A model generated the notes under the pieces. It saw only the letters and a list, made by a program, of their open reading frames with translations. It searched no databases and was not told the origin of the DNA. A DNA stretch of 64,000 nucleotides from Escherichia phage FEC14: the sequence record MG383452; one strand, 5' to 3'. The position numbers were made by a program, and so were the translations under genes. This document shows positions 9,891-28,283 of the stretch, in pieces. Every line of letters starts with the position of its first letter. The stretch's first letter is position 1.

Positions 9891-10169
9891 TTACTGGCCG
9901 TTGGCAGCAGCTTTCAGACCTTCACCGACTTTGAATTTAACTACATTTTTCGCTTCGATCTGGATCTGTTGTCCGTTCAGCGGGTTGCGGCCAGTGCGCG
10001 CTTCCTGATGTTTAACTTCGAACGCGCCGAAGCCTACGAATTGGACAGATTGGCCAGCCGCGACTGCAGTTTTCACGCCATTGATAAAAGATGCAACGAT
10101 TTTCTCAGCTTCGCCTTTGGTCATACCCTGGGTTTGAGCGATGTGAGCGATAAAATCAGTACGGTTCAT
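9891..10169 (-). CDS. HU/IHF-family DNA-binding protein
   Basis: From internal Met (MNRTDFIAHIAQ...) aligns end to end with E. coli HU incl. FVGFGAFEV and RTGRNPLNG arm motif; track ORF has a 12-aa N-terminal extension judged spurious. Confidence 0.8.
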   Translation of the reverse strand: MNRTDFIAHIAQTQGMTKGEAEKIVASFINGVKTAVAAGQSVQFVGFGAFEVKHQEARTGRNPLNGQQIQIEAKNVVKFKVGEGLKAAANGQ

Positions 10170-10252
10170 TCGGATTACTCCAGTTAGTTGTTTACGATGT
10201 TTCACTACAAGAGGACTACAGCTTACCTAACAAATACTATTGAATAAAGCGT

Positions 10253-15289: not shown

Positions 15290-15312
15290 GATATAGTTCC
15301 TTCATTTCAAAT

Positions 15313-15334
15313 GGGCGGGGCAAAGATACCCCGC
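15313..15334 (-). terminator. hairpin GGCGGGG-loop-CCCCGCC within a repeated 5'UTR cassette
   Basis: Inverted repeat between the 15342..15848 and 15011..15289 genes; near-identical copy near 15862. Confidence 0.4.
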
Positions 15335-15341
15335 CGTGGGT

Positions 15342-15848
15342 TTATAGGGTAACAAGTGATACGGTAAAAACCATCGTCCCATCTGTTGCCATTTTTCTTG
15401 AAACTGGGAAGACGCGAGGCTGACAGAATATCCATTCTTTCTCCATGGACGCCAAGTCCAGCATATCCATTTCTGATTCATCGCCTTTGTTCACAAATTT
15501 TTCTAGAGAACCAAAGACATTAAGCCCCTCTGGGAGTCCGTTTCGATGTTTATAACAAATGCGGGCAACAGCTTTGGTTCCATACGATTTAGAAAATTGT
15601 TTGGCCACATGCTTCAGTTCGCTGAAACTAAGACAAGAATCCCATGTCTGAAACATGTCTCCTCGTTCAAACATCATCTCCAAACGCGCAACGTCCTCTT
15701 TAGGCAACCCGCGATAAAGTGTGGTCATCTGCGGTTCGCGTAATTCTTGCACCAGACCACGGATGGCAGGGGAAACAGTGCCAGGGCGCATGATGTGGGA
15801 CTTATCATGGACGAGGTAAAATAAATCTTGAATTTGTTGATCGGTCAT
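15342..15848 (-). CDS. hypothetical protein (168 aa), MTDQ N-terminus
   Basis: Minus-strand ORF with the same upstream cassette as 15011..15289. Confidence 0.5.
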   Translation of the reverse strand: MTDQQIQDLFYLVHDKSHIMRPGTVSPAIRGLVQELREPQMTTLYRGLPKEDVARLEMMFERGDMFQTWDSCLSFSELKHVAKQFSKSYGTKAVARICYKHRNGLPEGLNVFGSLEKFVNKGDESEMDMLDLASMEKEWIFCQPRVFPVSRKMATDGTMVFTVSLVTL

Positions 15849-15861
15849 GATGTATTTCCTT

Positions 15862-15884
15862 CATTTCAAATAGGCGGGGTAATC
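15862..15884 (-). terminator. hairpin GGCGGGG-loop-CCCCACC, second copy of the repeated cassette
   Basis: Inverted repeat 3' of the 15908..16147 ORF. Confidence 0.4.
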
Positions 15885-15907
15885 ATACCCCACCCTAAGT
15901 TATAGAA

Positions 15908-16147
15908 TTAACTGATGTGCTTCAGAAGAGCGAAGAGGATCGCGGCCTTGGCTTTCACCTTTCCGACGACGCCTGTTTCGACGTCGACTTCTTCGGCAAC
16001 CCAATCTTTTCCCTTCTTGCTGATGATAACATCGCGGCGCTGGGCATATACTTCTTTGGTCGCATACACACGACGGAACCCTTTAGCGCGGAGCAAGCCC
16101 CAATTACGATCAATCTCCACTGAAGTTTCTACCATTTTGTTCTTCAT
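15908..16147 (-). CDS. hypothetical protein (79 aa)
   Basis: Minus-strand ORF. Confidence 0.4.
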   Translation of the reverse strand: MKNKMVETSVEIDRNWGLLRAKGFRRVYATKEVYAQRRDVIISKKGKDWVAEEVDVETGVVGKVKAKAAILFALLKHIS

Positions 16148-16237
16148 GATATAATCTTACCTTTCAACCTGGTGAACCCATCGTTCGCCAGTTATTGAAT
16201 AATACGCATTTGCCTTATAGAAGTAAACCCCTAAAAG

Positions 16238-16263
16238 TAAAAATCCCCAACGTTTGTTGGGGA
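16238..16263 (-). terminator. hairpin ATCCCCAAC-loop-GTTGGGGAT followed by TTTTTACTTTT on the minus strand
   Basis: Strong inverted repeat plus U-run directly 3' of the ACP-like gene. Confidence 0.55.
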
Positions 16264-16270
16264 TCTTCAG

Positions 16271-16603
16271 TTACTTGCGCAGGGCAACCACGTATTCGGC
16301 AAGTTCACCCATGGTCGGGTCGTCGCCTTTACCGCCCAGCCAGCCATCAGAGATCTCGACATTGAACTCTTCTTCTAGTTCCATGACGATTTCGATGGCA
16401 TCAAGATCGTCGCCGCCGAGGTCTTTCTTGGTGCGGAGGCCAGCCAGTTTATCCAGGGCGTCATTCATAATCACTTCCGCGTCGACGATGCCTTTGATGC
16501 TGCTCTTGTCTTCGTCACTGACTTCCAGGTTCAGATTGTCAGTGGCGTACTGAGCCAGGTGACGCATTACTTCAACATAAGTTGGTTTGTTTGACATAAG
16601 CAT
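16271..16603 (-). CDS. acyl-carrier-protein-like protein with Asp in place of the phosphopantetheine-attachment Ser
   Basis: DLGGDDLDAIEIVMELEEEFNVEISD aligns with E. coli ACP [26 protein letters not shown]; the conserved Ser is Asp here. Confidence 0.6.
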   Translation of the reverse strand: MLMSNKPTYVEVMRHLAQYATDNLNLEVSDEDKSSIKGIVDAEVIMNDALDKLAGLRTKKDLGGDDLDAIEIVMELEEEFNVEISDGWLGGKGDDPTMGELAEYVVALRK

Positions 16604-16606
16604 ATC

Positions 16607-16626
16607 TCAAAATGAAGGCGGGTTTC
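16607..16626 (-). terminator. hairpin GGCGGG-loop-CCCGCC 3' of the vWA gene
   Basis: Inverted repeat between the vWA stop and the ACP-like start. Confidence 0.4.
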
Positions 16627-16640
16627 CCCGCCAGTTGAAT

Positions 16641-18893
16641 TTAGATTTTGACTTCTTTTTCAGCCAGTTCGGCAGTGACAGTGTATTTCACCCCATCAAC
16701 TTCCACATCCATAGTGGATTCTTCCAAATCCAGGTCGGTAAACCAACCATGGCCTGCAACAATCCCATAAACTACCTTGGACAGCGTTTTGTTCAGAGAT
16801 CGAACTTCGTTGATAGCTGCTTTTGCTGCATCACCAATCCAACTTTCGATCAGCTTTTTCTGAGTCTCTTCCGGTACGCTGGTGATCATCGGCGATTTAA
16901 CAAACGCATTGTATTCGGCCAGGGCATTAGCGATCAGCTGATCAGCGACATTCAGTTTTTTACCGTCCGTCTGTTTTTTGATAACAGACGCGATGCTCGG
17001 CAGTGAAGATGCGCCTTTGATTTTCACATTCAATTCACGACTCATATAGACATCGGTTGATTCTACAGAAGAAGTCTTCGGTGAAAATCCATAGTCGCGA
17101 ATGCCGTTTGCTGACAGGAAATCAGCCGCTTCTTTGCCATATTTTGAAGCCAGACCAGTAGCGTTGCCTTTGCCAACCAGTTCATCACGGTAGAATTTCA
17201 GAACTTTTTGCTTTGCCTTCAATGCTTCACGGCGCACATTGTCTGCAAAGAATTCAGCAGCACTGATATTCTTTGTCATGGCGCGGTTAACCATTGGGAC
17301 ACTTTCCAGATTTACAATGAAGACTTCCGGCCCACCAAACACATGAACACCCATGGCAGTCAAATCCTGTGCCACCTTAGCCCGAATAATCGGAGAATCT
17401 GCAGTGATAGGCATTGTTTTCAGGTTGATGATACCATCCTTGACAATGGTGTAATTGCGATAACGCCAGGTTCCCAGCTCTTCAGGAAGTTCATATTTCT
17501 TCTGTACAAACTCAGGCACAACAACCGTTCCGTGTTGAACTGTCTGCACACTGATGTTAGGACGTTCTGAATTGTAGACCAAATTGCTGATCGGGACAAT
17601 CCCTTTATCATCTGCTGGATTGAATTCGGGGGTCCAATCTTCGTGCTCGGCCAGTTTGAGCGCCAGGGCTTTACGCTCTTCTTTAGAAGTCGCATTCGCA
17701 ATCTCTTCGGCCAACTTGTCTTCGGTGTCATCAACTTTCTGTACAGTACCGCGCCCAATGCTCTTGTAAGAGAATAGCGGATGCTTAGTGACAATAGAGA
17801 CATCTGCTTCAGCCAGATACGTCAGAACATCAACAATGGTGGTGGCGTCTTCAGCCGGAACCATATTATAATCGATGCCATCAACTCCTCGCAGAGATTC
17901 GTCTACGATAGCCTGGGTCAGATCGACTTTGATGTTGGAATAGTCCTGCTTGGTGAAACAGTTGCTGTATTGTTTGATGAAGCGGACGTCACCCGTTTTC
18001 TTCAGCGCAGCCCAAACCAAATCTGCGTCCATGGTATACACGCCGTAAAATGCCAGCACGTATGCCGCTTGGATGTCTGCCAGATTATCCAGCTGGTCGA
18101 TCATGTTGGGGTTTACAACCCACAGCTGAGAAACGCTTTCAGGGATGCTGACGTGGCCAATAGGGTGCTCTTCATCAGGATGCACAGCTAAAACAGTCGC
18201 CACGCCATTTTCAACATAAATGGCATGGGTGTAAACCAGGGGAACATCGACCACCACTTTCGGTGAAGAAGTTTTTAGCACGTTTTCCAATTCGGTCTGA
18301 TATTCATTCTGGCCTTCGGCGAATACGTGGGTCGCACCAGAACGTTCTGCCATTAGCGCCAGCAGTTCGCGATTACAATACCAACCGTATTCGATGAAGG
18401 TAATGTTATCAAACGCTTTGGGCAGTACTTCAGCGGCATCCAGGATTTCATTAGAACGCCAGCAGTTGTCATATCCGTCAGTCATGAATGCCAGGTTATT
18501 AACATAACCAGGTTTATTCAGGCTAATGGCAGTTTCCGCAGCCAATTTCAGCGGCTCAACAAAACCAGTACAACCAGAAGGCTTCAGGAAACGGTCAATT
18601 AGATTATTGATCTCAGTGAGATCAGTTGCACTGTTAATCTGACGTCCGGCAAATACCGTTCCGAAATCACCGCGAGATGAAAAGTAAAGGATGCTCACAG
18701 TATCTTCCGGTTTCACCAGGGAAGGCAGGTTCTCCTTCAGATGCTTACGGACTTCTGGAAGTGAACGATACATGGAACCGGAGATATCCACAACGATTAC
18801 ATGGTTAGACGGCGCGACGGTCGCAACCGCATTCTTAAATGTTAATGATTCAATCATCGTTATTACCTTCTTTAGTGGTATGGACGGCTTCAC
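16641..18893 (-). CDS. von Willebrand factor A (vWA) domain protein (about 740 aa)
   Basis: N-terminal MIDAS-type motif VIVVDISGSM plus downstream Thr/Asp positions typical of vWA; likely true start at MIESL (about 18857), coupled to an upstream small ORF. Confidence 0.65.
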   Translation of the reverse strand: MKPSIPLKKVITMIESLTFKNAVATVAPSNHVIVVDISGSMYRSLPEVRKHLKENLPSLVKPEDTVSILYFSSRGDFGTVFAGRQINSATDLTEINNLIDRFLKPSGCTGFVEPLKLAAETAISLNKPGYVNNLAFMTDGYDNCWRSNEILDAAEVLPKAFDNITFIEYGWYCNRELLALMAERSGATHVFAEGQNEYQTELENVLKTSSPKVVVDVPLVYTHAIYVENGVATVLAVHPDEEHPIGHVSIPESVSQLWVVNPNMIDQLDNLADIQAAYVLAFYGVYTMDADLVWAALKKTGDVRFIKQYSNCFTKQDYSNIKVDLTQAIVDESLRGVDGIDYNMVPAEDATTIVDVLTYLAEADVSIVTKHPLFSYKSIGRGTVQKVDDTEDKLAEEIANATSKEERKALALKLAEHEDWTPEFNPADDKGIVPISNLVYNSERPNISVQTVQHGTVVVPEFVQKKYELPEELGTWRYRNYTIVKDGIINLKTMPITADSPIIRAKVAQDLTAMGVHVFGGPEVFIVNLESVPMVNRAMTKNISAAEFFADNVRREALKAKQKVLKFYRDELVGKGNATGLASKYGKEAADFLSANGIRDYGFSPKTSSVESTDVYMSRELNVKIKGASSLPSIASVIKKQTDGKKLNVADQLIANALAEYNAFVKSPMITSVPEETQKKLIESWIGDAAKAAINEVRSLNKTLSKVVYGIVAGHGWFTDLDLEESTMDVEVDGVKYTVTAELAEKEVKI

Positions 18894-19481: not shown

Positions 19482-20207
19482 TTACAAGTAGGACACCACG
19501 ATGGCTCTATACAGCGCCCCCACGGAATCATCAGGTTCGGCTTTCGGATCTAACAAGAATTTCTTAACACGATCACAAGCTGCTTGGCGTTTGTCTTCTG
19601 ATAGGTCACACCACGGATAATCCCCTGAAGCAGCATTACACGTTTTCGCCAAACGCAAGACAAGTTCAGAATTTAGTTCTTCAGAAGTCATGAACGAGCG
19701 AAGATACGCTTCCACCAAAGATCTTGCTTCACCATTACGTCGTTCGTTATAACGTTCATTATCGGTGCGAACAAATTCAACTCGAAATCCCCGACTTGGA
19801 TCCTTGGGATGACGAAACACGACGGATTGTCCTTTACCCTTAAGGAATTCAGAACCACCCATCTCATGTATCGCTTCCCTTTCTGACACATATTCATCAA
19901 TGTTGATCTTAGCATCTTTGACGGACACATCGATGATCTGCTTTTCTACCATCGCGCGATATGCTTCTAGTTCCCACAGCTGGGAGAAGGTCTTTTCATA
20001 GGCCAGTTTCTTACCCAACTCTTCATCAAAGTTGGCTGGGTCGATAGAAGTTGAACTATTCTTACCCCACACAACGAACCCATTGTCCATCTTGAAATGG
20101 CATGTAATGACGCGGTGACCACCAACTTCACGGTCTTCATAAATCACTTCAGCAATATGTGACTTCAGAAGTTCTGGTGTGAGTTTAATCCCTTCACGAT
20201 TACCCAT
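19482..20207 (-). CDS. hypothetical protein (241 aa)
   Basis: Minus-strand ORF. Confidence 0.5.
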   Translation of the reverse strand: MGNREGIKLTPELLKSHIAEVIYEDREVGGHRVITCHFKMDNGFVVWGKNSSTSIDPANFDEELGKKLAYEKTFSQLWELEAYRAMVEKQIIDVSVKDAKINIDEYVSEREAIHEMGGSEFLKGKGQSVVFRHPKDPSRGFRVEFVRTDNERYNERRNGEARSLVEAYLRSFMTSEELNSELVLRLAKTCNAASGDYPWCDLSEDKRQAACDRVKKFLLDPKAEPDDSVGALYRAIVVSYL

Positions 20208-20451
20208 TATTCACCCCCACTTTCACCAAACGATCCAGTAATTGGTAAATCTTGCGGGGACAACGCCTTAAATCTTCATCCGACAGATATAGCACTTCGG
20301 TCTGAATATCTTTAAAAGTTGAAAGGTTATTCAACTCAGATTCGACGACGGTTTTCAATTGCGTATACGCTTCATCGCAATAATTTCGGCGGTTGCAATC
20401 GGTCATTACCTGAGATAACTTTTCAAAAGATTCTTGTATTTCCTTTGACAT
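20200..20451 (-). CDS. hypothetical protein (83 aa)
   Basis: Minus-strand ORF. Confidence 0.4.
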   Translation of the reverse strand: MSKEIQESFEKLSQVMTDCNRRNYCDEAYTQLKTVVESELNNLSTFKDIQTEVLYLSDEDLRRCPRKIYQLLDRLVKVGVNNG

Positions 20452-20860
20452 CGTTTGACACCTCTAGTTGGTCACACACAGATATTACTTTACGGCACGT
20501 GTCGATATCGAATAAACCGATATGGCAGTCGCGTTTCTTGATCCCCAGATTATGAGCCAGCCAGCTGTAAGCATCACTCCTGCTCCTCTGCCCACTTTTC
20601 CAGATAGGGTCAAACGACCTATGAGCTTCCTGCTTAGCAGCACGGAGAGCGGCATTCGCCATCCTTCCCAGAGGTTGTCTACCATCCCCATGGGTATGGC
20701 AACCCACACGAGCGTCGCATGGCGAGCATACCCAAAACTTCAGTTTGTGTAGATCTGGGCGATGAGGGTAGAGTACATCACCCCCGACGTATTTGGCAGG
20801 AAGGCCGCAGTAATCACAGATGACAGGTTTCATATTCTTTGTCCAAAAGAAACCCCGCAC
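20423..20860 (-). CDS. Cys-rich zinc-ribbon protein
   Basis: Paired Cys motifs CDYCG...CSPCDARVGCH...C...C. Confidence 0.4.
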   Translation of the reverse strand: MRGFFWTKNMKPVICDYCGLPAKYVGGDVLYPHRPDLHKLKFWVCSPCDARVGCHTHGDGRQPLGRMANAALRAAKQEAHRSFDPIWKSGQRSRSDAYSWLAHNLGIKKRDCHIGLFDIDTCRKVISVCDQLEVSNDVKGNTRIF

Positions 20861-20892
20861 ACGGCGGGGTTGCTCAGGCCGGAGCCGACAGA

Positions 20893-21264
20893 TTATTTCA
20901 ACAGAGCTTCCAGTTCTTCAAGAGATTTACCTTCAAGCTCCTGCTGTTTCTTACGCTGGATCAGTTCCAGAATAACCTGGTTGTTCGCTTTACGTTCGGC
21001 GGCGGTTGCGCTTTCGTCACGTTCTTTCAGTTTAACACCGATGATCGCTTTCACGATATCGAAACGCAGTTGTAACTGAGAGTCGACTGCGCTTTTCACG
21101 CCGATGAAATCTTCTTCATCGCTGGCGGCTTCCTTCACCTGACGGCTGAGGTCTTTCGCCAGTTCGTTTAGGGCATTCAGGTTCAGATCCCAAACCTGCT
21201 CAACAGATAGCAGACCTTTGTTAGAGTTGAAACGCAGTTTTAAACGGGTTGCTTGATCAAACAT
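20893..21264 (-). CDS. hypothetical coiled-coil protein (123 aa)
   Basis: Minus-strand ORF; heptad-like charged sequence. Confidence 0.45.
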   Translation of the reverse strand: MFDQATRLKLRFNSNKGLLSVEQVWDLNLNALNELAKDLSRQVKEAASDEEDFIGVKSAVDSQLQLRFDIVKAIIGVKLKERDESATAAERKANNQVILELIQRKKQQELEGKSLEELEALLK

Positions 21265-21301: not shown

Positions 21302-23320
21302 TTAGAAGATGACTTTTACAGTACGGTTAAACGCGCCGGACACTTTGACGAACACGTGGTTGCGTTGCGTCGTTGAGAATCCCAGACCGGACAGTTGGTT
21401 TTCATTCGGCTGGACTTTCATTTTACTACCCAACATTTCAAAAACCTTACGATGTTTATCCAGTTCCGGCTTCAGATATTCGTTGTAGAAACCACGAGTA
21501 CCTTCAGGATTAGCACAGCCTTCAAGAATGAAGAACACATGCTTGTTACCAGTTTGCTCCCCATCCCAATGGTTTGGTGAATTCAGAACCAGCTGTACTT
21601 TCTGGAAGGTCGCAGTCTTGATACCCCAAACTTCTTTAGACTTATCAACATTAGCCAGTTCGGACTTAATGCTAACGACTTGTTTGTCTTTAACAGTCAG
21701 GATGACTGCAGTGATACGCCCCTGATCTTTCAGGCCAGGATGGCTGAAACGATGCGTTGCGCCTTTGTATTCTACTTCGACTTCAAACCCTTCGTCGATC
21801 TTTTCACGTTGATTGTAGTTGTGGATTTCGAAACGGTATTCACCATCGCGCAGCTTGCTTTCATCTGTAAAGATGATATTTTCCACCGGAGCGCGGTTTG
21901 GATCAATACCATCCATACCGTTCATATCGATATCCAGATGGGCACCTGTCATAGAGCGACGATCACGGAAGTACACGTGCTCCATATTGTTAAAGAACAT
22001 ATGAAGATCGAGGTCGTCGTTATTGTGCCACGCCAAGGAAACGCGCAGATACCCGTCAACTTTACCACCAGCAGCCTTTACACGTTCTTTAATGGAATCG
22101 GTCACTTCACCGTTGTAAGACCAGGAGAACCCGTTGTTCCACTTGAACAGGTTAGGCGCATCTGGGTTCGCCGGAGCAACCAGGGACATCAGGTTGCTAG
22201 TATGAGAATTCTCTACAAGCACTTCCATTGAATGCGCTTTTGGCAGAACATTGCTCAGGAAATCATCAACGCTGATCTCTTCAACTTTTTCCAGGGACTT
22301 GGTCGGAGTTTTCACTTCGGCGGCCAGCTGTGCAAACGGATCCATCGCTTTCTGAGCAGCCAGATCTGCGAACAGAACGTTGTTGATTGTCAGATCATCG
22401 TAAACCGCATAACGACGCGCCAGTGAGTCTTCCAAACCCAGAGCAATAACTTCTTTCTGAGCGTTTTCGATCATGGATTTTGAAACCAGCGCTGTCGGAC
22501 GTTTGTAGTTCGCCGGAGCAACTTTGGATTCAAACGATTTAACAGCCTTTTCCAGTTCCACGCCTTCGCTGATATCTGTCAGCAGAGTGCCGATAACTGT
22601 GTTACGGATGCCGTGTGGAACATGATTGTTTGAACGGTATCCAGTATGCCATGCCCACAGAGAACGGGCTGATTCGGGGATTTGTTCATACGCTTTTTTG
22701 GTTTCAACAAATCCCTTCACTGCTGCTTTGTGTTCTGCGCCGCGATACAGAGAATTCTGGTCAATCAGTTCCAGAACGATTTCAGCTGATTCCAGAGTAA
22801 TTTCACGCAGACCGCGTTCAAACAATTCAATAGCCTGGCGGATTTCACCTTTTTTCGAAGCGATTGCGTCCGGACGCAGAACATAGCTACCCAGCAGGTC
22901 GGTGTGGAAGTGGTTGTAGGTGCGGACATTGCCGTCTTTCATTTCGTGATTCGACTCAACACCGACTTTCTTGGTATCGTTGAAGTACACGTCGACGATT
23001 ACGTGTTGCTTGACATACGCAGACAGCGCCGCAGCCACCACGTCATATTCATTACCCAGATCAATGTTGTCCCAGATAGAAATTACGTTCAGGTCGGAGT
23101 CGATGGTGATCACACCGCCGATGTTACGGATGAATTGTTTACAGCAGGTGCAGTCGTGCTCAGTACGCTCACGGTAGAGCGGGTTGGTACCAGCAGGGAA
23201 AGATGCCAGATACAGATCCCAAAGAGCATCTTTATCGATATTGGTCATGAACAGACCAGTTGCGGACATCGCCAGCACGTTGTTATTAACTGCCGTTGCG
23301 AAGGGTTTGAATTCTGCCAT
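21302..23320 (-). CDS. large uncharacterised protein (672 aa)
   Basis: Long uninterrupted minus-strand ORF; no family recognised by eye (no polymerase B, ligase or Walker motifs). Confidence 0.6.
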   Translation of the reverse strand: MAEFKPFATAVNNNVLAMSATGLFMTNIDKDALWDLYLASFPAGTNPLYRERTEHDCTCCKQFIRNIGGVITIDSDLNVISIWDNIDLGNEYDVVAAALSAYVKQHVIVDVYFNDTKKVGVESNHEMKDGNVRTYNHFHTDLLGSYVLRPDAIASKKGEIRQAIELFERGLREITLESAEIVLELIDQNSLYRGAEHKAAVKGFVETKKAYEQIPESARSLWAWHTGYRSNNHVPHGIRNTVIGTLLTDISEGVELEKAVKSFESKVAPANYKRPTALVSKSMIENAQKEVIALGLEDSLARRYAVYDDLTINNVLFADLAAQKAMDPFAQLAAEVKTPTKSLEKVEEISVDDFLSNVLPKAHSMEVLVENSHTSNLMSLVAPANPDAPNLFKWNNGFSWSYNGEVTDSIKERVKAAGGKVDGYLRVSLAWHNNDDLDLHMFFNNMEHVYFRDRRSMTGAHLDIDMNGMDGIDPNRAPVENIIFTDESKLRDGEYRFEIHNYNQREKIDEGFEVEVEYKGATHRFSHPGLKDQGRITAVILTVKDKQVVSIKSELANVDKSKEVWGIKTATFQKVQLVLNSPNHWDGEQTGNKHVFFILEGCANPEGTRGFYNEYLKPELDKHRKVFEMLGSKMKVQPNENQLSGLGFSTTQRNHVFVKVSGAFNRTVKVIF

Positions 23321-23433
23321 GGTATAGTCTTCCTGTTTCAGTTCAAAGTGAGCGCCCTTATCGGGGCGCGTCGTTAAAGTGAGGTCAATATATACGTTGA
23401 AAAAGTTATTGAAGAACGAAGTAACGCGATTCT

Positions 23434-24690
23434 TTATTCAGGTTTCTTCAAACGATCTAATAAATTGACCGATCCGCGATTGAGGACAATTTCATCGCAT
23501 CGATTTTTGTATCTCCCGCCTCCATCATAACCGACCTTGCCGCGTGGCTTTTCCCCTCTCTCGATAGCCTCAACACAGCGGGTGTACTTGCTCAATTCAC
23601 AGAACATGTTCTCCAGCTGCATGACGTTCATGCACTGATCTTCCGGCGCTTCGGCTGACCAGAACTGCTCTTGGACATAACCATACTGAGCAAACAATTG
23701 ATACTGATGATCACGAACCCAGAATATGCATTCTTCATGAGTCATGCCGTCCTTATCCAGGAACATCAGGTCAATACCCGCACGGCAACCTGGACCAGCA
23801 ATAGTGAAATGATTCTCACTGAATGGATATTCATCGATGTATGTAAAATCAACCCAAATCTGGTATGCCAAGAATGGTCCAAGCCCCTCAATGTCGTCAT
23901 ACATCGCCTGGTAAACAGAGTCGGGACGGCTAAATTCCCTGAGGCGATCAAAGTAATGAGGGTGTTTGTTGACGAATGCCTTCAAAGAGCGAATGACTCG
24001 CATCGGCATGTATGGTTCCCAGCCTTCTATTTTGTATTCACCAGGATTATCTTCGGCCAGCTTCTTGGCAACCTTGTAATCCATTTCATCTATAACACCA
24101 CCCACCCGATGGACTTTTACCTTCATGCCGCCAAAGCGTTGCTCCTTATGGTTGACAACCAGTTCAGGGAAAGCTAGGCATTGTTTCAGACCGCCTGTAT
24201 TAAACGCATTGGTGAAAACTTTGCCACCTTTAGATTCGAATTCCTGAAGAACATCTCGACACCATTCAAGATTTATGTTTCCGAATTCTTCGATCGTCCA
24301 TGGACCACCCAAAGCCTGTATAGGTTCCCACATGTTGTACATGCGGAACAATACACAGTTAAACATTTTGTCAGATAGCGTGAGATCCTGATCGAGGATG
24401 ATATTATTGATCAAATTTCGAGACTGCCTATCGTGCTCTCTCCGGACGTTACAGAACTTGACCTGCCGTAGTATGGGATTATCCGTCCAAGGAGCAGGAA
24501 GACGCTGGACGTCCTTTCTCACGTGGATCTTATAACGCTCGCTCATCCATTCGTATGCGAGTTGTTTATGGAATGGGCTTAACATGGGATGTGCAGATTT
24601 AATTTTAACTTCCCGAACACCGCAATAAGGAATGTCACACGGTTTATCTTTCATGGTATCCTCTCTAGAATACAAAAAAACAGAGGCCAT
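23434..24690 (-). CDS. uncharacterised protein (418 aa)
   Basis: Long minus-strand ORF; no family recognised. Confidence 0.6.
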   Translation of the reverse strand: MASVFLYSREDTMKDKPCDIPYCGVREVKIKSAHPMLSPFHKQLAYEWMSERYKIHVRKDVQRLPAPWTDNPILRQVKFCNVRREHDRQSRNLINNIILDQDLTLSDKMFNCVLFRMYNMWEPIQALGGPWTIEEFGNINLEWCRDVLQEFESKGGKVFTNAFNTGGLKQCLAFPELVVNHKEQRFGGMKVKVHRVGGVIDEMDYKVAKKLAEDNPGEYKIEGWEPYMPMRVIRSLKAFVNKHPHYFDRLREFSRPDSVYQAMYDDIEGLGPFLAYQIWVDFTYIDEYPFSENHFTIAGPGCRAGIDLMFLDKDGMTHEECIFWVRDHQYQLFAQYGYVQEQFWSAEAPEDQCMNVMQLENMFCELSKYTRCVEAIERGEKPRGKVGYDGGGRYKNRCDEIVLNRGSVNLLDRLKKPE

Positions 24691-24725
24691 TATAGCCTCT
24701 GTTGTTTAGTGAATAACGGATTATA

Positions 24726-25682
24726 TTAATCGAAGCGAGAGAGGTGTGTCACAGTGTTTTGAACAGGTGCGCACGCGTATACACGAACATTAGCACCCCA
24801 CACCCCACACAGCTTAGGCATATTGGTATCGTTAATGATATACGCTGGCACATAACTTTCAATTTGGCCGTTAACATCTACGGGTCGAGAAGATTTTTCA
24901 ACTGCCATAGAAAGAATTATTTCCAACGTTTTTGGAGATACCAACGCCACGCCGTTCAAATCATCAACAAATACCTGACCTTCTTCAATTGCCATGCTGG
25001 CAACGATGTCATTGATCTGACGGGAAGGGGTATTCGTCAGCATATCAGAGAAATCAGGCTCTTTGAACACAGCCATGTTTTTCAGGAATTTTCCTTTCGG
25101 ATATTCTTTGCCATTCCACATCACAGTCTCATTCACTTTGATGCATGCCTGAGGGAATTCACCTTCAACACGTAACTGGCCATCTGGGAAACCGCGTGAA
25201 TAATAATATTCCAGTGCCGGACCGACTTCATCTTCTGAGCGAATAAATTTGCTCATGTTGGAGGCATAAACACGCTGCAAGCACTCATCGCCGTTGAAAC
25301 CAGCAATGTGTGCCACGCCGTCATTGACTGTTGTGATGTCGCCCTGAGCGTCCAAAATCTGGCGCATAATGTCTTTGATGTCGACAACAGCAGGTTCTTT
25401 CAGGACTCGCGGAGATGCAGTGAACTCAATTTTCACCTCGTGGTCGAAATAAGCCGCTTCCAGTAATTCGCGGGTCTCTTCCAGAACCAGTTTGGCCTGA
25501 TTGCGAATTTTACCGAAGTCAGGGGCTGTAATATCTCCAGCCGCATTACCAAAAGCCAAATTCAATCTCACGTTTTTATTAAATGTAGTTGTCATAATAT
25601 AGCGACTCCAGTTATTCGCTTTTTGCCCGACTTGGGCGAATAGTGTATTTTGGAACCAATTTCCACTCAGAAACTTGGTCAT
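24726..25682 (-). CDS. uncharacterised protein (318 aa), N-terminal region weakly resembling all-alpha NTP pyrophosphohydrolases (MazG/dCTPase-like)
   Basis: KLVLEETRELLEAAYF segment resembles the E-x-x-E-L-L-E helix of MazG-like enzymes; weak. Confidence 0.5.
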   Translation of the reverse strand: MTKFLSGNWFQNTLFAQVGQKANNWSRYIMTTTFNKNVRLNLAFGNAAGDITAPDFGKIRNQAKLVLEETRELLEAAYFDHEVKIEFTASPRVLKEPAVVDIKDIMRQILDAQGDITTVNDGVAHIAGFNGDECLQRVYASNMSKFIRSEDEVGPALEYYYSRGFPDGQLRVEGEFPQACIKVNETVMWNGKEYPKGKFLKNMAVFKEPDFSDMLTNTPSRQINDIVASMAIEEGQVFVDDLNGVALVSPKTLEIILSMAVEKSSRPVDVNGQIESYVPAYIINDTNMPKLCGVWGANVRVYACAPVQNTVTHLSRFD

Positions 25683-26076
25683 GTTTTACAACTTTGATCC
25701 GAGACATGTCAGCCACTTCGGTTATTTGTTCCGGATGCAAGATCTTAACCATATTCCATTGCTCCAGAAGCCGTATAATCCGATTCATACGCAGGACATC
25801 TTCACGCGTAAAGCCGTTGTAGTGCCCATCTAGCATGAACAAATGCTTGAAATGCACGATGTGATATCTGCCAAATTTATGCAGGATATGGCACGTTTGA
25901 TACAAGGTGTTAGGCTCTTGACGAGTGTTAACCCCTATCCGACTCAGCGTTTCCTTGATACCCAGGAAAATCCCTGGTTTGTCTTGGTTCAATTGAACTT
26001 CAACCATACAGTCAACAATGCTGGCCTCATCGTTGACAGCTGAAAGTTTTAAGATGTCCAGCGTATTACGCGCCAT
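25612..26076 (-). CDS. regA: translational repressor RegA
   Basis: IKETLSRIG...LYQTCHILHKFGRYHIVHFKHLFMLDG...SEWKLVPKYTI aligns with T4 RegA (VKETLTRMG...LYQSCHILQKKGLYYIVHFKEMLRMDG...HEWKLVPKYTI); true start may be the internal Met at about 26007. Confidence 0.75.
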   Translation of the reverse strand: MARNTLDILKLSAVNDEASIVDCMVEVQLNQDKPGIFLGIKETLSRIGVNTRQEPNTLYQTCHILHKFGRYHIVHFKHLFMLDGHYNGFTREDVLRMNRIIRLLEQWNMVKILHPEQITEVADMSRIKVVKHDQVSEWKLVPKYTIRPSRAKSE

Positions 26077-26105
26077 GACTCATACCCCTTTAACAATTAT
26101 TTGAA

Positions 26106-26528
26106 TTACTTAGCCTTGCGCGGTTTGGCTTTTTCGTTGCTGTTGGAACGTTCGACCTTCGCCTTGATTTCAGCCAGGACTTCTTTCGGCAGGAATCGAA
26201 CATATTCTGAAGCCTTTTCAGGACTGATGTAATAATACTCAGAAATCAATTTCACATCAGGATCCATAGCTCCCTTCTTAGACCACTTGTCATAGCGACG
26301 TTTTGCCGGAATGCTATGAAACGCCAGGTTCCATTGCATCCAAGGAGTAATGGCATGGAAGCGGTTCATTTGTTCGGCAACCACAAGCGTGTCTTTACTC
26401 TGAGCAAGGCCGCGCCGAGTCATGAAAGGATCAAATGCCTTTCTGATTTCGGGGTCTTCGGTCATCAACAGATTCTCTTTGGTGCTATTCAACGCACCGA
26501 GGTAATCGAACAGTGACGGAGCGGCCAT
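26106..26528 (-). CDS. 62: clamp-loader small subunit gp62
   Basis: PAKRRYDKWSK matches T4 gp62 PRGKRYGKWAK; position between gp44 and regA as in T4. Confidence 0.6.
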   Translation of the reverse strand: MAAPSLFDYLGALNSTKENLLMTEDPEIRKAFDPFMTRRGLAQSKDTLVVAEQMNRFHAITPWMQWNLAFHSIPAKRRYDKWSKKGAMDPDVKLISEYYYISPEKASEYVRFLPKEVLAEIKAKVERSNSNEKAKPRKAK

Positions 26529-26532
26529 AATA

Positions 26533-27522
26533 TTACTTCCATTTGATGTTGAGCATGACGTTAGTCAAGAAGTAAACGCCGTGTAACCAGACGTCGCCGA
26601 CGGAACGATGTTCAATCTGAGACTGACCACAGACGCATACCAGATCAGGGATTGACTCGTTTTGAATCAAAGGAGTCTTTTCCTTGTTCTGGGGAACGCA
26701 GAAATGGAAGAAACGGGAATAAAAATCTTCAGTGATGTAGTTTTGGTTGTCGGTCACCCACTGCTTCATCCCAGCCCAATCATTGGTTTTCAGGAAATCA
26801 ACCAACGCTTGGAATTCCCCTGCTTTAACCTGTGCCAGAGCGCGTTCATCGATTTTACCAAACGTGGTGGCATTATCCTGAAGAGTTCCCATAATTTTGC
26901 GATTATCTGGGAAATATGATTTCACAATGGAAGCAATTACACCAGCTTCATACGGAATGCCTTCCTCTGTCAGGATAGTTGCGCAACGACGCATGAATTG
27001 GAGTTTAACTTCATCTGCTTCCTTTTCAGACCAGATAAAATCAATTTCACGACAGCGGGAACGCAGAGGTTCATTAACGCGCTGTTTCGCATTAGTCGTC
27101 AGGATGAAGGAGCAGTTTTTGGAGACTTTCTCTACGATGCCTTTCAGGGATTCCTGTGCCGCCATGGAAAGTCGCTCAACTTCATCAAGGATAACGACTT
27201 TGCGGCCACCGAAAACACTGACGCCAGTTGCGTATTGAATAACGCGGTCACGAATGACATCAATGCTGTTATCCAGTGACGCATTGATCATCAACGGTTT
27301 GATACAACCGATTTCGTTACACACAGCCAGAGCAGAAGTAGTCTTGCCCGTACCAGGCTGAGGGGAATAGAACAGCATTGAGGGGATGTTTCCATTGCCT
27401 GATGTAACATAGCCATGGATTTTTGCACGGACGTCTGAAGGGAGGACGATCTCATCCAGATTGTCAGGGCGATATTTGTTTTCCCACGCATATTGATCTG
27501 TGACGATAGTGATGTTAGACAT
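26533..27522 (-). CDS. 44: clamp-loader AAA+ ATPase gp44
   Basis: KYRP...LDE...P-loop PQPGTGKTT, DEVERL (Walker B), SRC motif (RSRCREIDF); adjacent to gp45 and gp62. Confidence 0.85.
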   Translation of the reverse strand: MSNITIVTDQYAWENKYRPDNLDEIVLPSDVRAKIHGYVTSGNGNIPSMLFYSPQPGTGKTTSALAVCNEIGCIKPLMINASLDNSIDVIRDRVIQYATGVSVFGGRKVVILDEVERLSMAAQESLKGIVEKVSKNCSFILTTNAKQRVNEPLRSRCREIDFIWSEKEADEVKLQFMRRCATILTEEGIPYEAGVIASIVKSYFPDNRKIMGTLQDNATTFGKIDERALAQVKAGEFQALVDFLKTNDWAGMKQWVTDNQNYITEDFYSRFFHFCVPQNKEKTPLIQNESIPDLVCVCGQSQIEHRSVGDVWLHGVYFLTNVMLNIKWK

Positions 27523-27552
27523 TGCAGCCTCTTTAGATAAAACGTTTCAAAG

Positions 27553-27569
27553 GGCGGGGAAACCCCGCC
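27553..27569 (-). terminator. hairpin GGCGGGG-AAA-CCCCGCC followed by U-rich tract on the minus strand
   Basis: Inverted repeat 3' of gp45, 5' of gp44. Confidence 0.45.
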
Positions 27570-27599
27570 ACCGATAATAAAGCACCGAATCGTTATTGA

Positions 27600-28283
27600 T
27601 TAATCCAGCTGCATGCCGACGTAATAGTTGATGGTGCCGTCTGCGGATTGGAAGTTAACCAGTTGCATTTCGGCACAGGCGCGGATCACATAGTTGCCTT
27701 CGATCATTTTCAGGTTGACCACATCAACAGGCATAGCAAAATCACCCAGAGTTGTTTCACCCAACTCAACAGTGTAATCGTTGGAATTGTCGATAGTAGT
27801 AGTCGTGCCCACCAGACGAGTTTTACCGCCGCTGGCAACCAGACGTACAGTTTTGTGGCCCAGAGTAGAACAGGCGCGGGTCAGCTCTTTCATTTTTTCA
27901 GGAGTGACTGTTGCTTCAAATTCTACAGACGGGAGATCGATGCTGTCTGCCGGAACGACAGTCAGTTCTTTAGCGGAACGCCAGAATTGCAGTTGGGAGT
28001 TTTCACCTTTCAGCAAAATGTGGTCTTCCGACATTTCAATTTTACCGCCTTTAAAACTCGGCAGACGCTGGATTGCCAGCAATTTGGTCAGATCCAGAAT
28101 CGGGAATTCGAACGGGAAGTCTTCGTCAATGTCGGCAATAGCGATAACTGTACTGGAATCGTTAACAGTGCGCAACTTTTTACCAGGTGCCAGAACGATA
28201 GAGGGGCAGATGGTTTCAAAGTTAGCCAGCAGTTGTAAAGTGCGTTCGGAGAGAGTGATCTCTTGCATTAGTTGTATCCTCAA
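27600..28283 (-). CDS. 45: sliding clamp gp45
   Basis: 227 aa (T4 gp45 is 228 aa); N-terminal LQLLANFETI matches T4 TALLKNFATI; gene order 45-44-62. Confidence 0.8.
   Translation of the reverse strand: MRIQLMQEITLSERTLQLLANFETICPSIVLAPGKKLRTVNDSSTVIAIADIDEDFPFEFPILDLTKLLAIQRLPSFKGGKIEMSEDHILLKGENSQLQFWRSAKELTVVPADSIDLPSVEFEATVTPEKMKELTRACSTLGHKTVRLVASGGKTRLVGTTTTIDNSNDYTVELGETTLGDFAMPVDVVNLKMIEGNYVIRACAEMQLVNFQSADGTINYYVGMQLD

Follow-up and report, generated by a model that had tools for sequence, protein, structure and literature searches.

The window, i.e., the whole 64-kb stretch of DNA analysed here, is from a Kuttervirus (Ackermannviridae) of the ViI/CBA120-like kind. Its nucleotide identity is ~97% to CBA120 and 94–97% across SenALZ1, SFP10 and CBA120, and its mapped ends place it opposite about 64 kb to about 126.6–127 kb of ViI. 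It contains a T4-like replication-accessory block, annotated in the same way in SFP10 and ViI, in which Pfam domains identify gp45, gp44, gp62 and regA on one strand (Table 1). In T4, the gene order is 45-44-62-regA-43. The preliminary description of this DNA had recognized that the order up to regA is kept in the window but that no polymerase follows, and both observations hold; the slot is filled instead by three genes on the minus strand, encoding a MazG-like protein, a gp160-like protein and a DUF8224 protein.

Table 1. Features in and around the three-gene slot (positions in the window)
Feature	Position	Strand	Basis or remark
T4-like replication-accessory block	25612..28283	-	context for the three-gene slot
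gp45 clamp	27600-28283	-	Pfam gp45-slide_C
gp44	26533-27522	-	Pfam AAA and Gp44_lid
gp62	26106-26528	-	Pfam Phage_clamp_A
regA	25612-26076	-	Pfam Translat_reg
MazG/PRA-PH-like NTP pyrophosphatase (probable), 289 aa	24726..25595	-	PHROG, tblastn chain, hhalign
EETRELLE acidic helix motif (E39, E40, E43, E46) of MazG-like domain	25458..25481	-	
DAQGD, second motif of MazG-like domain	25338-25352	-	
SNMSK motif of MazG-like domain	25248-25262	-	
Intrinsic-terminator-like hairpin between MazG-like and gp160-like genes	24679..24703	-	11-bp stem, 3-nt loop, TTTTTTGTATT tail
gp160 ortholog (HMUDK_hel = aGPT-Pplase clade 1), 407 aa	23434..24657	-	Pfam PF18723 and ViI synteny
HhH-like GLGPF of gp160 ortholog	23872-23886	-	
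AGPGC of gp160 ortholog	23785-23799	-	
LENMFCELSKY motif, putative catalytic Glu349 and Cys353 (407-aa numbering)	23584..23616	-	family conservation, clade-2 collinearity
DUF8224 (PF26675) multidomain protein, 672 aa	21302..23320	-	Pfam name from precomputed matches
ERTEHDCTCC motif, N-terminal domain of DUF8224	23141..23170	-	invariant columns
TerD-like beta-sandwich domain of DUF8224, ~aa 420-555	21656..22063	-	predicted model
123-aa helical partner of DUF8224 (phrog_2018)	20893..21264	-	just downstream, beyond the 21302-25682 span
Intrinsic-terminator-like hairpin closing the DUF8224 and partner unit	20851..20871	-	8-bp stem, 6 GC pairs, T-rich tail
HU-like gene	9891-10205	-	recognised by eye from the translation

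The position of the three open reading frames in the gene-43 slot could in itself suggest a DNA polymerase that is split, disrupted by an intein or endonuclease, or highly diverged, comparable to the case of some T4-like Aeromonas phages, in which gene 43 is split. However, the window lacks family-B motifs in all six frames, and Walker A, YxDTD and SLYP motifs are absent from all three proteins, as the preliminary description had already noted for family-B and Walker A motifs. No DNA_pol_B or exonuclease Pfam match was found in them either, and each protein is confidently assigned to another family. ViI, a close relative, possesses an intact 998-aa family-B polymerase (DNA_pol_B at 145128–148124) outside the stretch that matches the window; the gene lies ~55 kb off, relocated beside other hypermodification genes (gp243 and gp247). 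When the ViI polymerase, gp67, gp226, gp243, gp247, the thyA-like protein and gp160 were compared with the window by tblastn, gp160 was the sole query to match. A polymerase reading is refuted by the Pfam and motif searches and has next to no probability.

The three open reading frames, all on the minus strand, lie where the preliminary description placed them, but two of the lengths, 318 and 418 aa, were over-extended. The called 318-aa frame (24726–25682) begins within regA; the true start of the MazG-like gene is the ATG at 25595, located 9 nt past a GGAG and 16 nt past the regA stop, and the resulting 289 aa agrees with the annotation of SFP10 and ViI. The ATG of the called 418-aa frame (23434–24690) at 24690 falls in the loop of the terminator-like hairpin, and the gp160-like gene truly starts at the ATG at 24657, which AGAGGA precedes, so that its product has 407 aa.

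The MazG-like protein consists of an N-terminal all-alpha domain of ~135 aa and a variable C-terminal domain. It has no direct sequence match in Pfam or the PDB, and its AF2 model (pLDDT 52) is too poor for use. It does match PHROG 2144, "MazG-like pyrophosphatase" (1.7e-135), and phrog_671 (2.9e-19), and a tblastn comparison connects it with a PaMx31 ORF (6e-18) which in turn matches both PRA-PH and MazG in Pfam. An hhalign comparison with a Bordetella phage PRA-PH protein (E = 6.6e-5) pairs EETRELLE, DAQGD and SNMSK with EExxE, DAxGD and NMSK of the Pfam PRA-PH protein, and the residues of these three motifs, including the four glutamates of the first, are invariant across 18 family members. 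The weak MazG-like helix reported previously is thus real. Compared with the MazG and PRA-PH (HisE) all-alpha NTP pyrophosphohydrolases, the motifs align and homologues pass the Pfam thresholds for PRA-PH and MazG, whereas the window protein itself stays below Pfam detection and carries an extra variable C-terminal domain of ~100 aa, which a 174-aa homologue from Vibrio phage YC lacks. These sequence comparisons indicate that the first gene most likely encodes a MazG/PRA-PH-type NTP pyrophosphatase. Its functional analogues would be the dTTPases that hmU phages have and the dCTPase gp56 of T4. Its gene is the last in the clamp-loader/regA transcription unit. Its most plausible substrates would be dTTP or dUTP, and it would most likely trim the dNTP pool in favour of 5-hydroxymethyl-dUTP. 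Homologues form ~204 clusters, chiefly in Ackermannviridae and some N4-like phages; the latter, which are not known hmU users, have close homologues.

The gp160-like protein matches Pfam PF18723 at 2.7e-84, its 283 bits far exceeding the cut-off of 25 bits, and is 86.5% identical to ViI gp160 (Vi01_130c, orf00160, YP_004327501), which has the same length, Pfam family and invariant motifs and the same place between the MazG-like gene and orf00158. There is no difference of substance between the two, and the gene is the ViI gp160 ortholog, belonging to the thymidine-hypermodification gene set. The label "uncharacterised" in the preliminary description was therefore wrong for this gene. Most of the picture of the slot is already known. 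gp160 is a published member of the hypermodification set: it was listed as aG/PT-PPlase1 and was one of five gene products supplied as mixed lysates in the reconstitution of 5-(2-aminoethoxy)methyl-dU (5-NeOmdU), the base that takes the place of ~40% of T in the DNA of ViI and of CBA120 (PMC5889632). For both of these phages, a virion-nucleoside analysis of the kind proposed in the preliminary description (LC-MS) is already in the literature, identifying 5-NeOmdU as the extra base, and a single extra nucleoside peak was all that was reported for ViI-like DNA.

Other members of the PF18723 family are M6 gp55 and, within SP10 gp186, the C-terminal domain, and gp160 homologues are found in thymidine-hypermodifying lineages. 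The rest of the pathway lies outside the window, and we infer its presence in this genome from relatives: the ViI kinases gp67 and gp243 are positioned at ~38 kb and ~150 kb, and IMG/VR contigs whose DUF8224 is 97–99% identical to that of the window carry gp247 homologues. The gene set would lead from 5-hmdU via 5-phosphomethyl-dU and O-serinyl-T to 5-NeOmdU.

The role of the gp160 ortholog within this pathway can be approached through its conserved residues. All of 29 family members, down to 40% identity, share E349, N350, C353, E354 and K357, and the E-x3-C-E-x2-K motif is also kept in M6 gp55 and SP10 gp186. The motif is collinear with E243..C247 in M6 gp51 and the E..C pair in ViI gp247, both of which, together with PaMx11 gp46/PUGT (PDB 8Z2M), are clade-2 amino-acid:DNA transferases (ADDT, PF18724). 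The Glu/Cys pair is essential in clade-2 enzymes (PMC8989533), including E243/C247 of PaMx11 gp46, and attacks C6 of 5-PmdU (PMC11472151). Clade-2 enzymes and the gp160 ortholog share a GxGP[FW] HhH-like element followed ~91–99 residues on by N-x4-E-x3-C, but the gp160 ortholog has no PF18724 match. Because the profile similarity between the clades is weak (hhalign probability 0.4–3.5%, the 3.5% match being statistically weak at E = 0.012), the argument for a shared dyad is based on motif collinearity and the literature. Since the Glu-x3-Cys dyad is kept, the ortholog, a clade-1 aGPT-Pplase with an HhH-like fold, most likely flips the 5-PmdU base from DNA; Cys353 would then attack C6 and an exocyclic C5 methylene would form, as with its clade-2 paralogue gp247.

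Alternatively, the gp160-like protein may be a non-catalytic accessory that binds DNA and, e.g., brings the kinase to 5-hmdU DNA or orients it there. Such a role is suggested by the Pfam name, "kinase helical domain"; SP10 has the gp160-type domain and the kinase in a single protein, the two adjoin in M6, and SP10 gp186 with a C-terminal deletion still phosphorylates DNA. In addition, the kinase and gp247, followed by gp226, already yield O-SerT and then 5-NeOmdU without gp160, with either lysates or purified proteins, so these steps do not need it (PMC8989533). However, an E-x3-C-E-x2-K motif invariant in the 29 members, M6 gp55 and SP10 gp186 is typical of an active site. The Bacillus phage protein SP10 gp186 (5-hmdU DNA kinase fused to HMUDK_hel) is also informative: its C-terminal domain is a member of the family (hhalign 99.4%) with the E..C..K motif retained, although it is fused to a kinase, whereas the window protein stands alone and, judging by the ViI positions, far from both kinases. 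SP10 makes glutamyl-T, yet no clade-2 enzyme was detected in it (Table 3, PMC5889632). The kinase fusion and the lack of a detected clade-2 enzyme together argue that clade 1 can be catalytic, and a purely accessory role is considered rather unlikely.

The third protein belongs to DUF8224, a family that forms >7,600 clusters when grouped at 90% identity and 4,704 when grouped at 50%. Its AF2 model has a mean pLDDT of 82 and found no matches in the PDB by Foldseek; the predicted structure carries a TerD-like beta-sandwich with an invariant acidic set of residues (D435, D436, D438, D463, D465, N467, E480, N481). No link to TerD was detected at the sequence level by HMM or hhalign, and, in contrast to the TerD tellurite-resistance/Ca2+-binding beta-sandwich (PDB 2KXT, 2QZ7), the domain sits inside a 672-aa multidomain protein with no Ter operon around. 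In the N-terminal domain, E51, D56, C57, C60 and H137 are invariant among 36 sequences of 48–82% identity, suggesting a conserved Cys/His/Asp/Glu site, and ERTEHDCTCC together with H137 is a possible metal site. The preliminary description reported no KxDG; a KVDG is in fact present at residue 420, but it is not a ligase motif because its K is not conserved (N in the family consensus).

Functionally, the true neighbour of the DUF8224 gene is the 123-aa gene. All 160 DUF8224 loci with room for a partner gene have a homologue of it; in 155 of them it comes immediately downstream on the same strand, the median gap being 32 nt. Partners aligned from five distant loci are 33–40% identical to the window protein, and phiCbK has an annotated terminator at the place equivalent to the hairpin that closes the unit. 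DUF8224 and its obligate partner of ~125 aa would thus form a self-contained, terminator-closed bicistronic cassette.

DUF8224 is found in Ackermannviridae, Herelleviridae, Schitoviridae, the siphovirus phiCbK and bacterial chromosomes, where the small partner is the only conserved gene around; its hosts include phiCbK, RSL1, BCP78, RiverRider, pf16, a cyanophage, Micromonosporaceae and Myxococcota. The cassette is spread over unrelated phages and bacterial genomes without being tied to thymidine hypermodification. This range argues against the 672-aa protein being an ordinary virion, structural or carbohydrate-binding protein, as do its position between replication genes, the "unknown function" category of all its PHROG families, and the state of the gene in relatives, being frameshifted in the ViI reference and in pieces in Dickeya phages; such a role is improbable. 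Our best guess, held with low confidence, is that the cassette might be an accessory system that senses a metal or a ligand and acts on some host component common to very different bacteria.

The preliminary description had further proposed that the three genes, together with an HU-like gene, form one co-functional nucleotide-metabolism or DNA-modification module. The genes are indeed adjacent on one strand, two of them have homology to proteins related to nucleotides or DNA bases, and the suggested comparison of gene neighbourhoods showed the order regA-MazG-gp160-DUF8224 to be kept in SFP10 and ViI. However, the terminator-like hairpin parts the MazG-like gene from the gp160-like gene, and each of the three genes has a phyletic distribution of its own. 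In five distant DUF8224 loci (four named phages and one metagenome contig), tblastn found no MazG, gp160 or vWA homologue within 7 kb, whereas the partner occurs in all 160 loci with room for it, and in Aeromonas phage phiA8-29 the gp160 homologue lies ~100 kb from the pyrophosphohydrolase. The three slot genes are not one module, and the proposal, largely refuted, is very unlikely. As the second gene is a published hypermodification member and the third occurs in genomes without gp160 or MazG nearby, the DNA-modification idea is right for the gp160 ortholog, plausible for the MazG-like gene and unsupported for DUF8224.

The best explanation overall, which we regard as probable, is that the slot holds three separate units: a MazG-type pyrophosphatase, a gp160 ortholog and a self-contained DUF8224 cassette. 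Besides the MazG-type gene, the slot after regA contains a known hypermodification gene and a very widespread two-gene cassette, and in the Kuttervirus lineage these functionally separate units stand in place of gene 43. The HU-like gene does exist, but it lies ~11 kb from the slot genes.

The gene order gp45-gp44-gp62-regA reported upstream of the locus in the preliminary description is real, because Pfam recognises all four genes directly upstream and on the same strand, i.e., the gp45 clamp domain, gp44 (AAA and Gp44_lid), gp62 (Phage_clamp_A) and regA (Translat_reg). The three minus-strand ORFs described next to this block, at 24726-25682 (318 aa), 23434-24690 (418 aa) and 21302-23320 (672 aa), were found at these coordinates, but two of them had been over-extended and encode proteins of 289 aa (gene 1) and 407 aa (gene 2); the third is termed gene 3. 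The ATG at 25682 falls within regA, and gene 1 in fact begins at the ATG at 25595, which has GGAG in front of it. For gene 2, the ATG at 24690 is part of the loop of a terminator-like hairpin (11-bp stem) 3′ of gene 1, and translation starts at the ATG at 24657 behind AGAGGA. The annotation of phages SFP10 and ViI agrees with both corrected lengths. Identity of the span to Salmonella phages SenALZ1 and SFP10 is 94-96%, and that to Escherichia phage CBA120, taken over 24 kb around the span, is ~97%, all three phages being Kuttervirus members of the Ackermannviridae; the ends of the window map to ~64 kb and ~126.6 kb of the reference phage ViI.

The three genes had been proposed to form a single nucleotide-metabolism or DNA-modification module, which was not borne out, as the locus consists of one known hypermodification gene, one predicted nucleotide pyrophosphatase and one unrelated orphan cassette. 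The DNA-modification idea thus holds for gene 2, a published hypermodification gene, is plausible for gene 1 and is unsupported for gene 3. The main outcome is a clean-up, i.e., a relocated polymerase and a published hypermodification gene, with little that is new overall.

Features of the locus and its surroundings (nucleotide positions in the window unless marked aa)
Feature	Position	Strand	Basis or remark
Gene 1, MazG/PRA-PH-type protein, 289 aa	24726-25595	-	PHROG, tblastn, hhalign
C-terminal third of gene 1	24726-25150	-	alignment, by eye
Gene 2, gp160 ortholog, HMUDK_hel / clade 1	23434-24657	-	Pfam PF18723, synteny
GLGPF	aa 258		HhH-like element of gene 2
AGPGC	aa 287		HhH-like element of gene 2
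LENMFCELSKY	aa 348-358		C-terminal E-x3-C-E-x2-K motif of gene 2
Gene 3, DUF8224 (PF26675) protein, 672 aa	21302-23320	-	precomputed Pfam hits
Partner, 123 aa, phrog_2018	20893-21264	-	directly downstream of gene 3
Terminator-like hairpin	20871..20851	-	closes the pair of gene 3 and partner
DUF3268 zinc-finger protein	20423-20860	-	downstream of locus
Phage_gp49_66 family protein	19482-20207	-	downstream of locus
vWA protein, 750 aa	16641-18893	-	N-terminal von Willebrand A domain
HU-like DNA-binding protein	9891-10205	-	by eye from translation

In T4 this slot is that of the DNA polymerase, and the reported absence of Walker A and family-B polymerase motifs from all three proteins was confirmed by motif search. 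The family-B motifs YxDTDS and SLYPS were found neither in the three proteins nor in any frame of the 64-kb window, and Pfam matched no DNA_pol_B or exonuclease domain in the three proteins. The DNA polymerase of ViI is a 998-aa family-B enzyme encoded at 145-148 kb, adjoining gp243 and gp247. When this polymerase, both 5-hmdU kinases, gp247, gp226, the thyA-like gene and gp160 of ViI were searched against the window by tblastn, gp160 was the only query with a match. The "missing" polymerase is a relocation across the lineage rather than a replacement, and its absence from this slot is an already known rearrangement of Ackermannviridae genomes. A split or diverged polymerase was ruled out, since both Pfam matches and motifs are absent and an intact polymerase is encoded elsewhere in ViI.

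Gene 2 matches Pfam PF18723 (HMUDK_hel, clade 1 of the aGPT-Pplase family) with 283.3 bits (cut-off 25; E = 2.7e-84) over profile positions 5-280 of 281. It is 86.5% identical to ViI gp160 over 407 aa and has the same neighbours as in ViI, i.e., a MazG-like gene upstream and orf00158 downstream. The ViI gene Vi01_130c, which shares position and family with gene 2, bears the note orf00160, and the numbering by orf in Lee et al. was checked with gp67 (YP_004327432, orf00067), which matches the 5-hmdU kinase model. Since orf note, position, family and identity coincide, gene 2 is assigned, from its sequence and setting, as the ortholog of ViI gp160.

ViI gp160 is named "aG/PT-PPlase1" in Table 3 of PMC5889632, in which pooled lysates expressing gp67, gp160, gp226, gp243 and gp247 were reported to convert 5-hmdU DNA to 5-(2-aminoethoxy)methyl-dU (5-NeOmdU), a base replacing ~40% of T in ViI, CBA120 and CBA6 (PMC5889632). 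Gene 2 is a published component of this thymidine-hypermodification system, and the non-canonical base that had been proposed for testing is already on record for near-identical phages. The 5-NeOmdU system gives therapeutic-candidate phages resistance to many restriction enzymes. A follow-up paper assigned the production of 5-phosphomethyl-dU (5-PmdU) to the kinases gp67 and gp243, serine transfer to gp247 (now Pfam ADDT, PF18724, the clade-2 amino-acid:DNA transferases) and decarboxylation of the serine-transfer product to gp226, leaving gp160 without a step (PMC8989533). No published biochemical activity on 5-hmdU or 5-PmdU DNA was found for any clade-1 member. The 5-hmdU DNA kinase and dUMP hydroxymethylase genes are present in ViI at map positions outside the 64-kb window, and IMG/VR genomes with a DUF8224 protein 97-99% identical to that of the window carry homologues of gp247.

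Across 29 family members with identities as low as 40%, the motif MNVMxLENxFCELxKY has invariant E349, N350, C353, E354 and K357, and elements of the HhH-hairpin-like segments GLGPF and AGPGC do not vary either. The E-x3-C-E-x2-K pattern is also kept in the same-family M6 gp55 and in the C-terminal domain of SP10 gp186. In clade-2 transferases, GFGPW is followed ~92 residues on by N-x4-E243-x3-C247, the same spacing as that between positions 258 and 349 of gp160, and both MAFFT and hhalign alignments place E349/C353 opposite E243/C247 of M6 gp51, suggesting that gene 2 carries an ADDT-type Glu/Cys dyad near the C-terminus of the domain. The clade-2 Glu/Cys pair is essential (PMC8989533), and its Cys attacks C6 to give an exocyclic methylene (PMC8989533; PMC11472151). 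Pfam gave no match of gene 2 to the ADDT model PF18724. Comparison of the gp160 family by hhalign yielded a probability of 0.4% against single ADDT sequences and a weak 3.5% (E = 0.012) against an ADDT alignment of 31 sequences; in the latter comparison both motifs fall within the 115 columns over which the alignment is collinear.

Clade-1 proteins could alternatively be non-catalytic accessories of the kinases, which is considered improbable; SP10, in which a clade-2 gene was not detected, makes glutamyl-T (Table 3, PMC5889632), from which it can be argued that clade 1 can be catalytic. In the favoured reading, gp160-type proteins are probably active base-flipping C6-thiol enzymes working on 5-PmdU and a second substrate. 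More speculatively, the clade-1 enzyme may represent a second active DNA-base transferase, which could, e.g., convert activated 5-PmdU to thymine or some other adduct and, if true, would set the ~40% modification level. The identity of gp160 is known and its putative catalytic dyad is invariant; assigning its step would fill the remaining gap in the pathway and could account for the partial extent of modification.

Several observations concern the surroundings of clade-1 genes. M6 gp56, which adjoins the clade-1 gene gp55 (18288-18848 in the M6 locus, L005), matches Pfam Nmad5 (nucleotide modification associated domain 5; 2.2e-33) and is another unassigned component of a thymidine-hypermodification cluster. 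HNH or homing-endonuclease genes are annotated in or beside the gp160 region of phage Marshall and Dickeya phage Ds3CZ, and PhaxI matches the locus in two pieces, which suggests an insertion; the gp160 locus may be a hot spot for mobile endonucleases.

Gene 3 is placed in DUF8224 by precomputed PF26675 hits on essentially all listed homologues, one of them 96% identical to the window protein. Clustering of the family gives >7,600 groups at 90% identity and 4,704 at 50% identity, and its members are typically 40-50% identical over the full length. They occur in phages phiCbK, RSL1, Bacillus BCP78, N4-like RiverRider, Pseudomonas pf16, a cyanophage and Cellulophaga phages, as well as in bacterial assemblies of Micromonosporaceae, Myxococcota, Bradyrhizobium and a C. 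difficile plasmid. No literature on DUF8224 or PF26675 was found, and papers on TerD in phages do not mention DUF8224.

The structural model of gene 3 has a predicted TerD-type beta-sandwich fold, and DUF8224 would combine this sandwich, which may bind a metal or a ligand, with a Cys/His/acidic site that is conserved. Pfam gave no match of gene 3 to the TerD model PF02342, the DUF8224 family profile found no TerD chain in the PDB, and hhalign against an unvalidated TerD sequence gave no signal (probability 0.1%). Foldseek searches with the DUF8224 model returned nothing from the PDB at E <= 0.001 and only uncharacterised phage proteins from the BFVD viral library. NCBIfam and PADLOC scans of the locus proteins gave no match, and PDB searches with single sequences and family profiles of the three proteins and the partner (the small helical protein encoded downstream of gene 3) gave chance-level matches only.

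Homologues of this partner (33-40% identity) lie directly 3′ of DUF8224 in phiCbK, RSL1, BCP78, RiverRider and a metagenomic phage. The arrangement was surveyed in 165 loci (80 from IMG/VR, 80 from GTDB genomes and 5 retrieved one by one), and the partner was counted in the 160 with >= 450 nt of downstream sequence. All 160 of these, from phages and from bacteria of many phyla, contain the partner, immediately downstream on the same strand in 155 (median gap 32 nt) and adjacent in another arrangement in the remaining 5. The partner is obligate for DUF8224 and is the true partner of gene 3. No homologue of MazG, gp160 or the vWA protein was detected by tblastn within 7 kb of DUF8224 in five distant loci. 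The invariable partner, the closing hairpin and the lack of these neighbours together argue that gene 3 forms part of an autonomous bicistronic cassette, apparently unrelated to thymidine hypermodification.

The DUF8224-partner system is among the most widespread in tailed phages (>4,700 clusters at 50% identity), spanning unrelated phage families (Ackermannviridae, Herelleviridae, Schitoviridae and others) and several bacterial phyla, with the cassette also present in Micromonosporaceae, Myxococcota, Bradyrhizobium and Clostridioides replicons. Its target may be a host component that is universal, and the strictly conserved small partner makes one of the larger uncharacterised families of phage proteins accessible to concrete tests. 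The joint reading, in which DUF8224 and its ~125-aa partner form an undescribed two-gene system and, separately, gp160-type proteins are a second active DNA-base transferase, is advanced as a tentative and rather unlikely one.

RNA-repair genes accompany the cassette in a few loci. RtcB lies within 4 kb of DUF8224 in 3/165 loci, including L109, L116 and L121, and HD and RlaP genes lie near the cassette in 2/165, with one locus holding RtcB, HD and RlaP. In Bradyrhizobium sp. Tv2a-2 (L109, 2604-8000) the order is RtcB, DUF8224, partner, HD-domain protein and RlaP nucleotidyltransferase, and in a viral contig (L077) the HD and RlaP pair likewise follows the cassette. These neighbours hint at nucleic-acid repair or counter-defence; as an association of the cassette, RNA repair is far from consistent and suggestive at best.

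In 34 Micromonosporaceae assemblies (chromosomes; L128-L174), DUF8224 and its partner are the sole segment conserved between loci, and the flanks show little high-GC3 coding signal, which is more in keeping with a small cassette of mobile or foreign origin than with a prophage common to them. The DUF8224 gene of ViI (Vi01_128c/129c; 15300-17319 in the ViI locus, L002) is split by a frameshift near aa 480-489, and several Dickeya (Limestonevirus) genomes match DUF8224 as fragments only. In these relatives the gene is either dispensable or hit by sequencing errors; from the frameshift and the fragments, the cassette appears dispensable in some of them.

The MazG-like hint reported for gene 1 proved correct, as gene 1 matches phrog_2144 "MazG-like pyrophosphatase" at 1.7e-135 and phrog_671 "nucleotide pyrophosphohydrolase" at 2.9e-19. 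Pfam MazG, PRA-PH and MazG-like models gave no match even at E <= 10, nor did NCBIfam, nor the PDB by phmmer or by profile. A tblastn search with the N-terminal 186 aa found a PaMx31 ORF (6e-18), which itself matches Pfam PRA-PH (2.2e-7) and reaches the MazG cut-off. Alignment to a PRA-PH protein of Bordetella phage MW2 by hhalign (probability 64%, E = 6.6e-5) pairs LVLEETRELLEA, DAQGD and SNMSK of gene 1 with the canonical EExxE, DAxGD and NMSK, and E39, E40, E43, E46, D82 and D86 are invariant in 18 sequences, preserving the EExxE and ExxD / DxxGD metal-binding motifs. The AF2 model has a mean pLDDT of only 52 because the alignment is shallow, and hhalign against the ViI dUTPase_2 protein gave no signal. 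Taken together, these matches identify gene 1 as a probable MazG/PRA-PH-type nucleotide pyrophosphatase. By analogy with hmU phages, a role in the dNTP pool, e.g., as a dTTPase/dUTPase favouring hm-dUTP, is plausible.

Homologues of gene 1 form only ~204 clusters, the majority belonging to Ackermannviridae and some to N4-like phages of Pectobacterium and Klebsiella; that of Vibrio phage YC has 174 aa, lacks the C-terminal domain and is placed after regA and GroES. Among Ackermannviridae the N-terminal domain is nearly invariant, unlike the C-terminal ~100 aa, of which at least two types were seen. Over its N-terminal 186 aa the protein is 100% identical to Det7 and CBA120, whereas the whole locus is closest to SenALZ1, which suggests a mosaic origin.

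The HU-like gene lies ~11 kb from the locus. The HU-type protein TF1 of SPO1 prefers hmU DNA, and by analogy the HU-like protein of the window might prefer modified DNA. The 750-aa vWA protein (Pfam VWA 3.4e-7; PHROG 2426, of unknown function) is kept in SFP10 and ViI; a TerY/TerF-like link between DUF8224 and vWA was ruled out, as a vWA homologue was absent from 5/5 distant DUF8224 loci by tblastn. Downstream of the locus lie the DUF3268 protein (6.4e-37) and the Phage_gp49_66 protein (9.7e-13), the latter only 46% identical between the window and SFP10 and hence a variable gene inside an otherwise conserved block.
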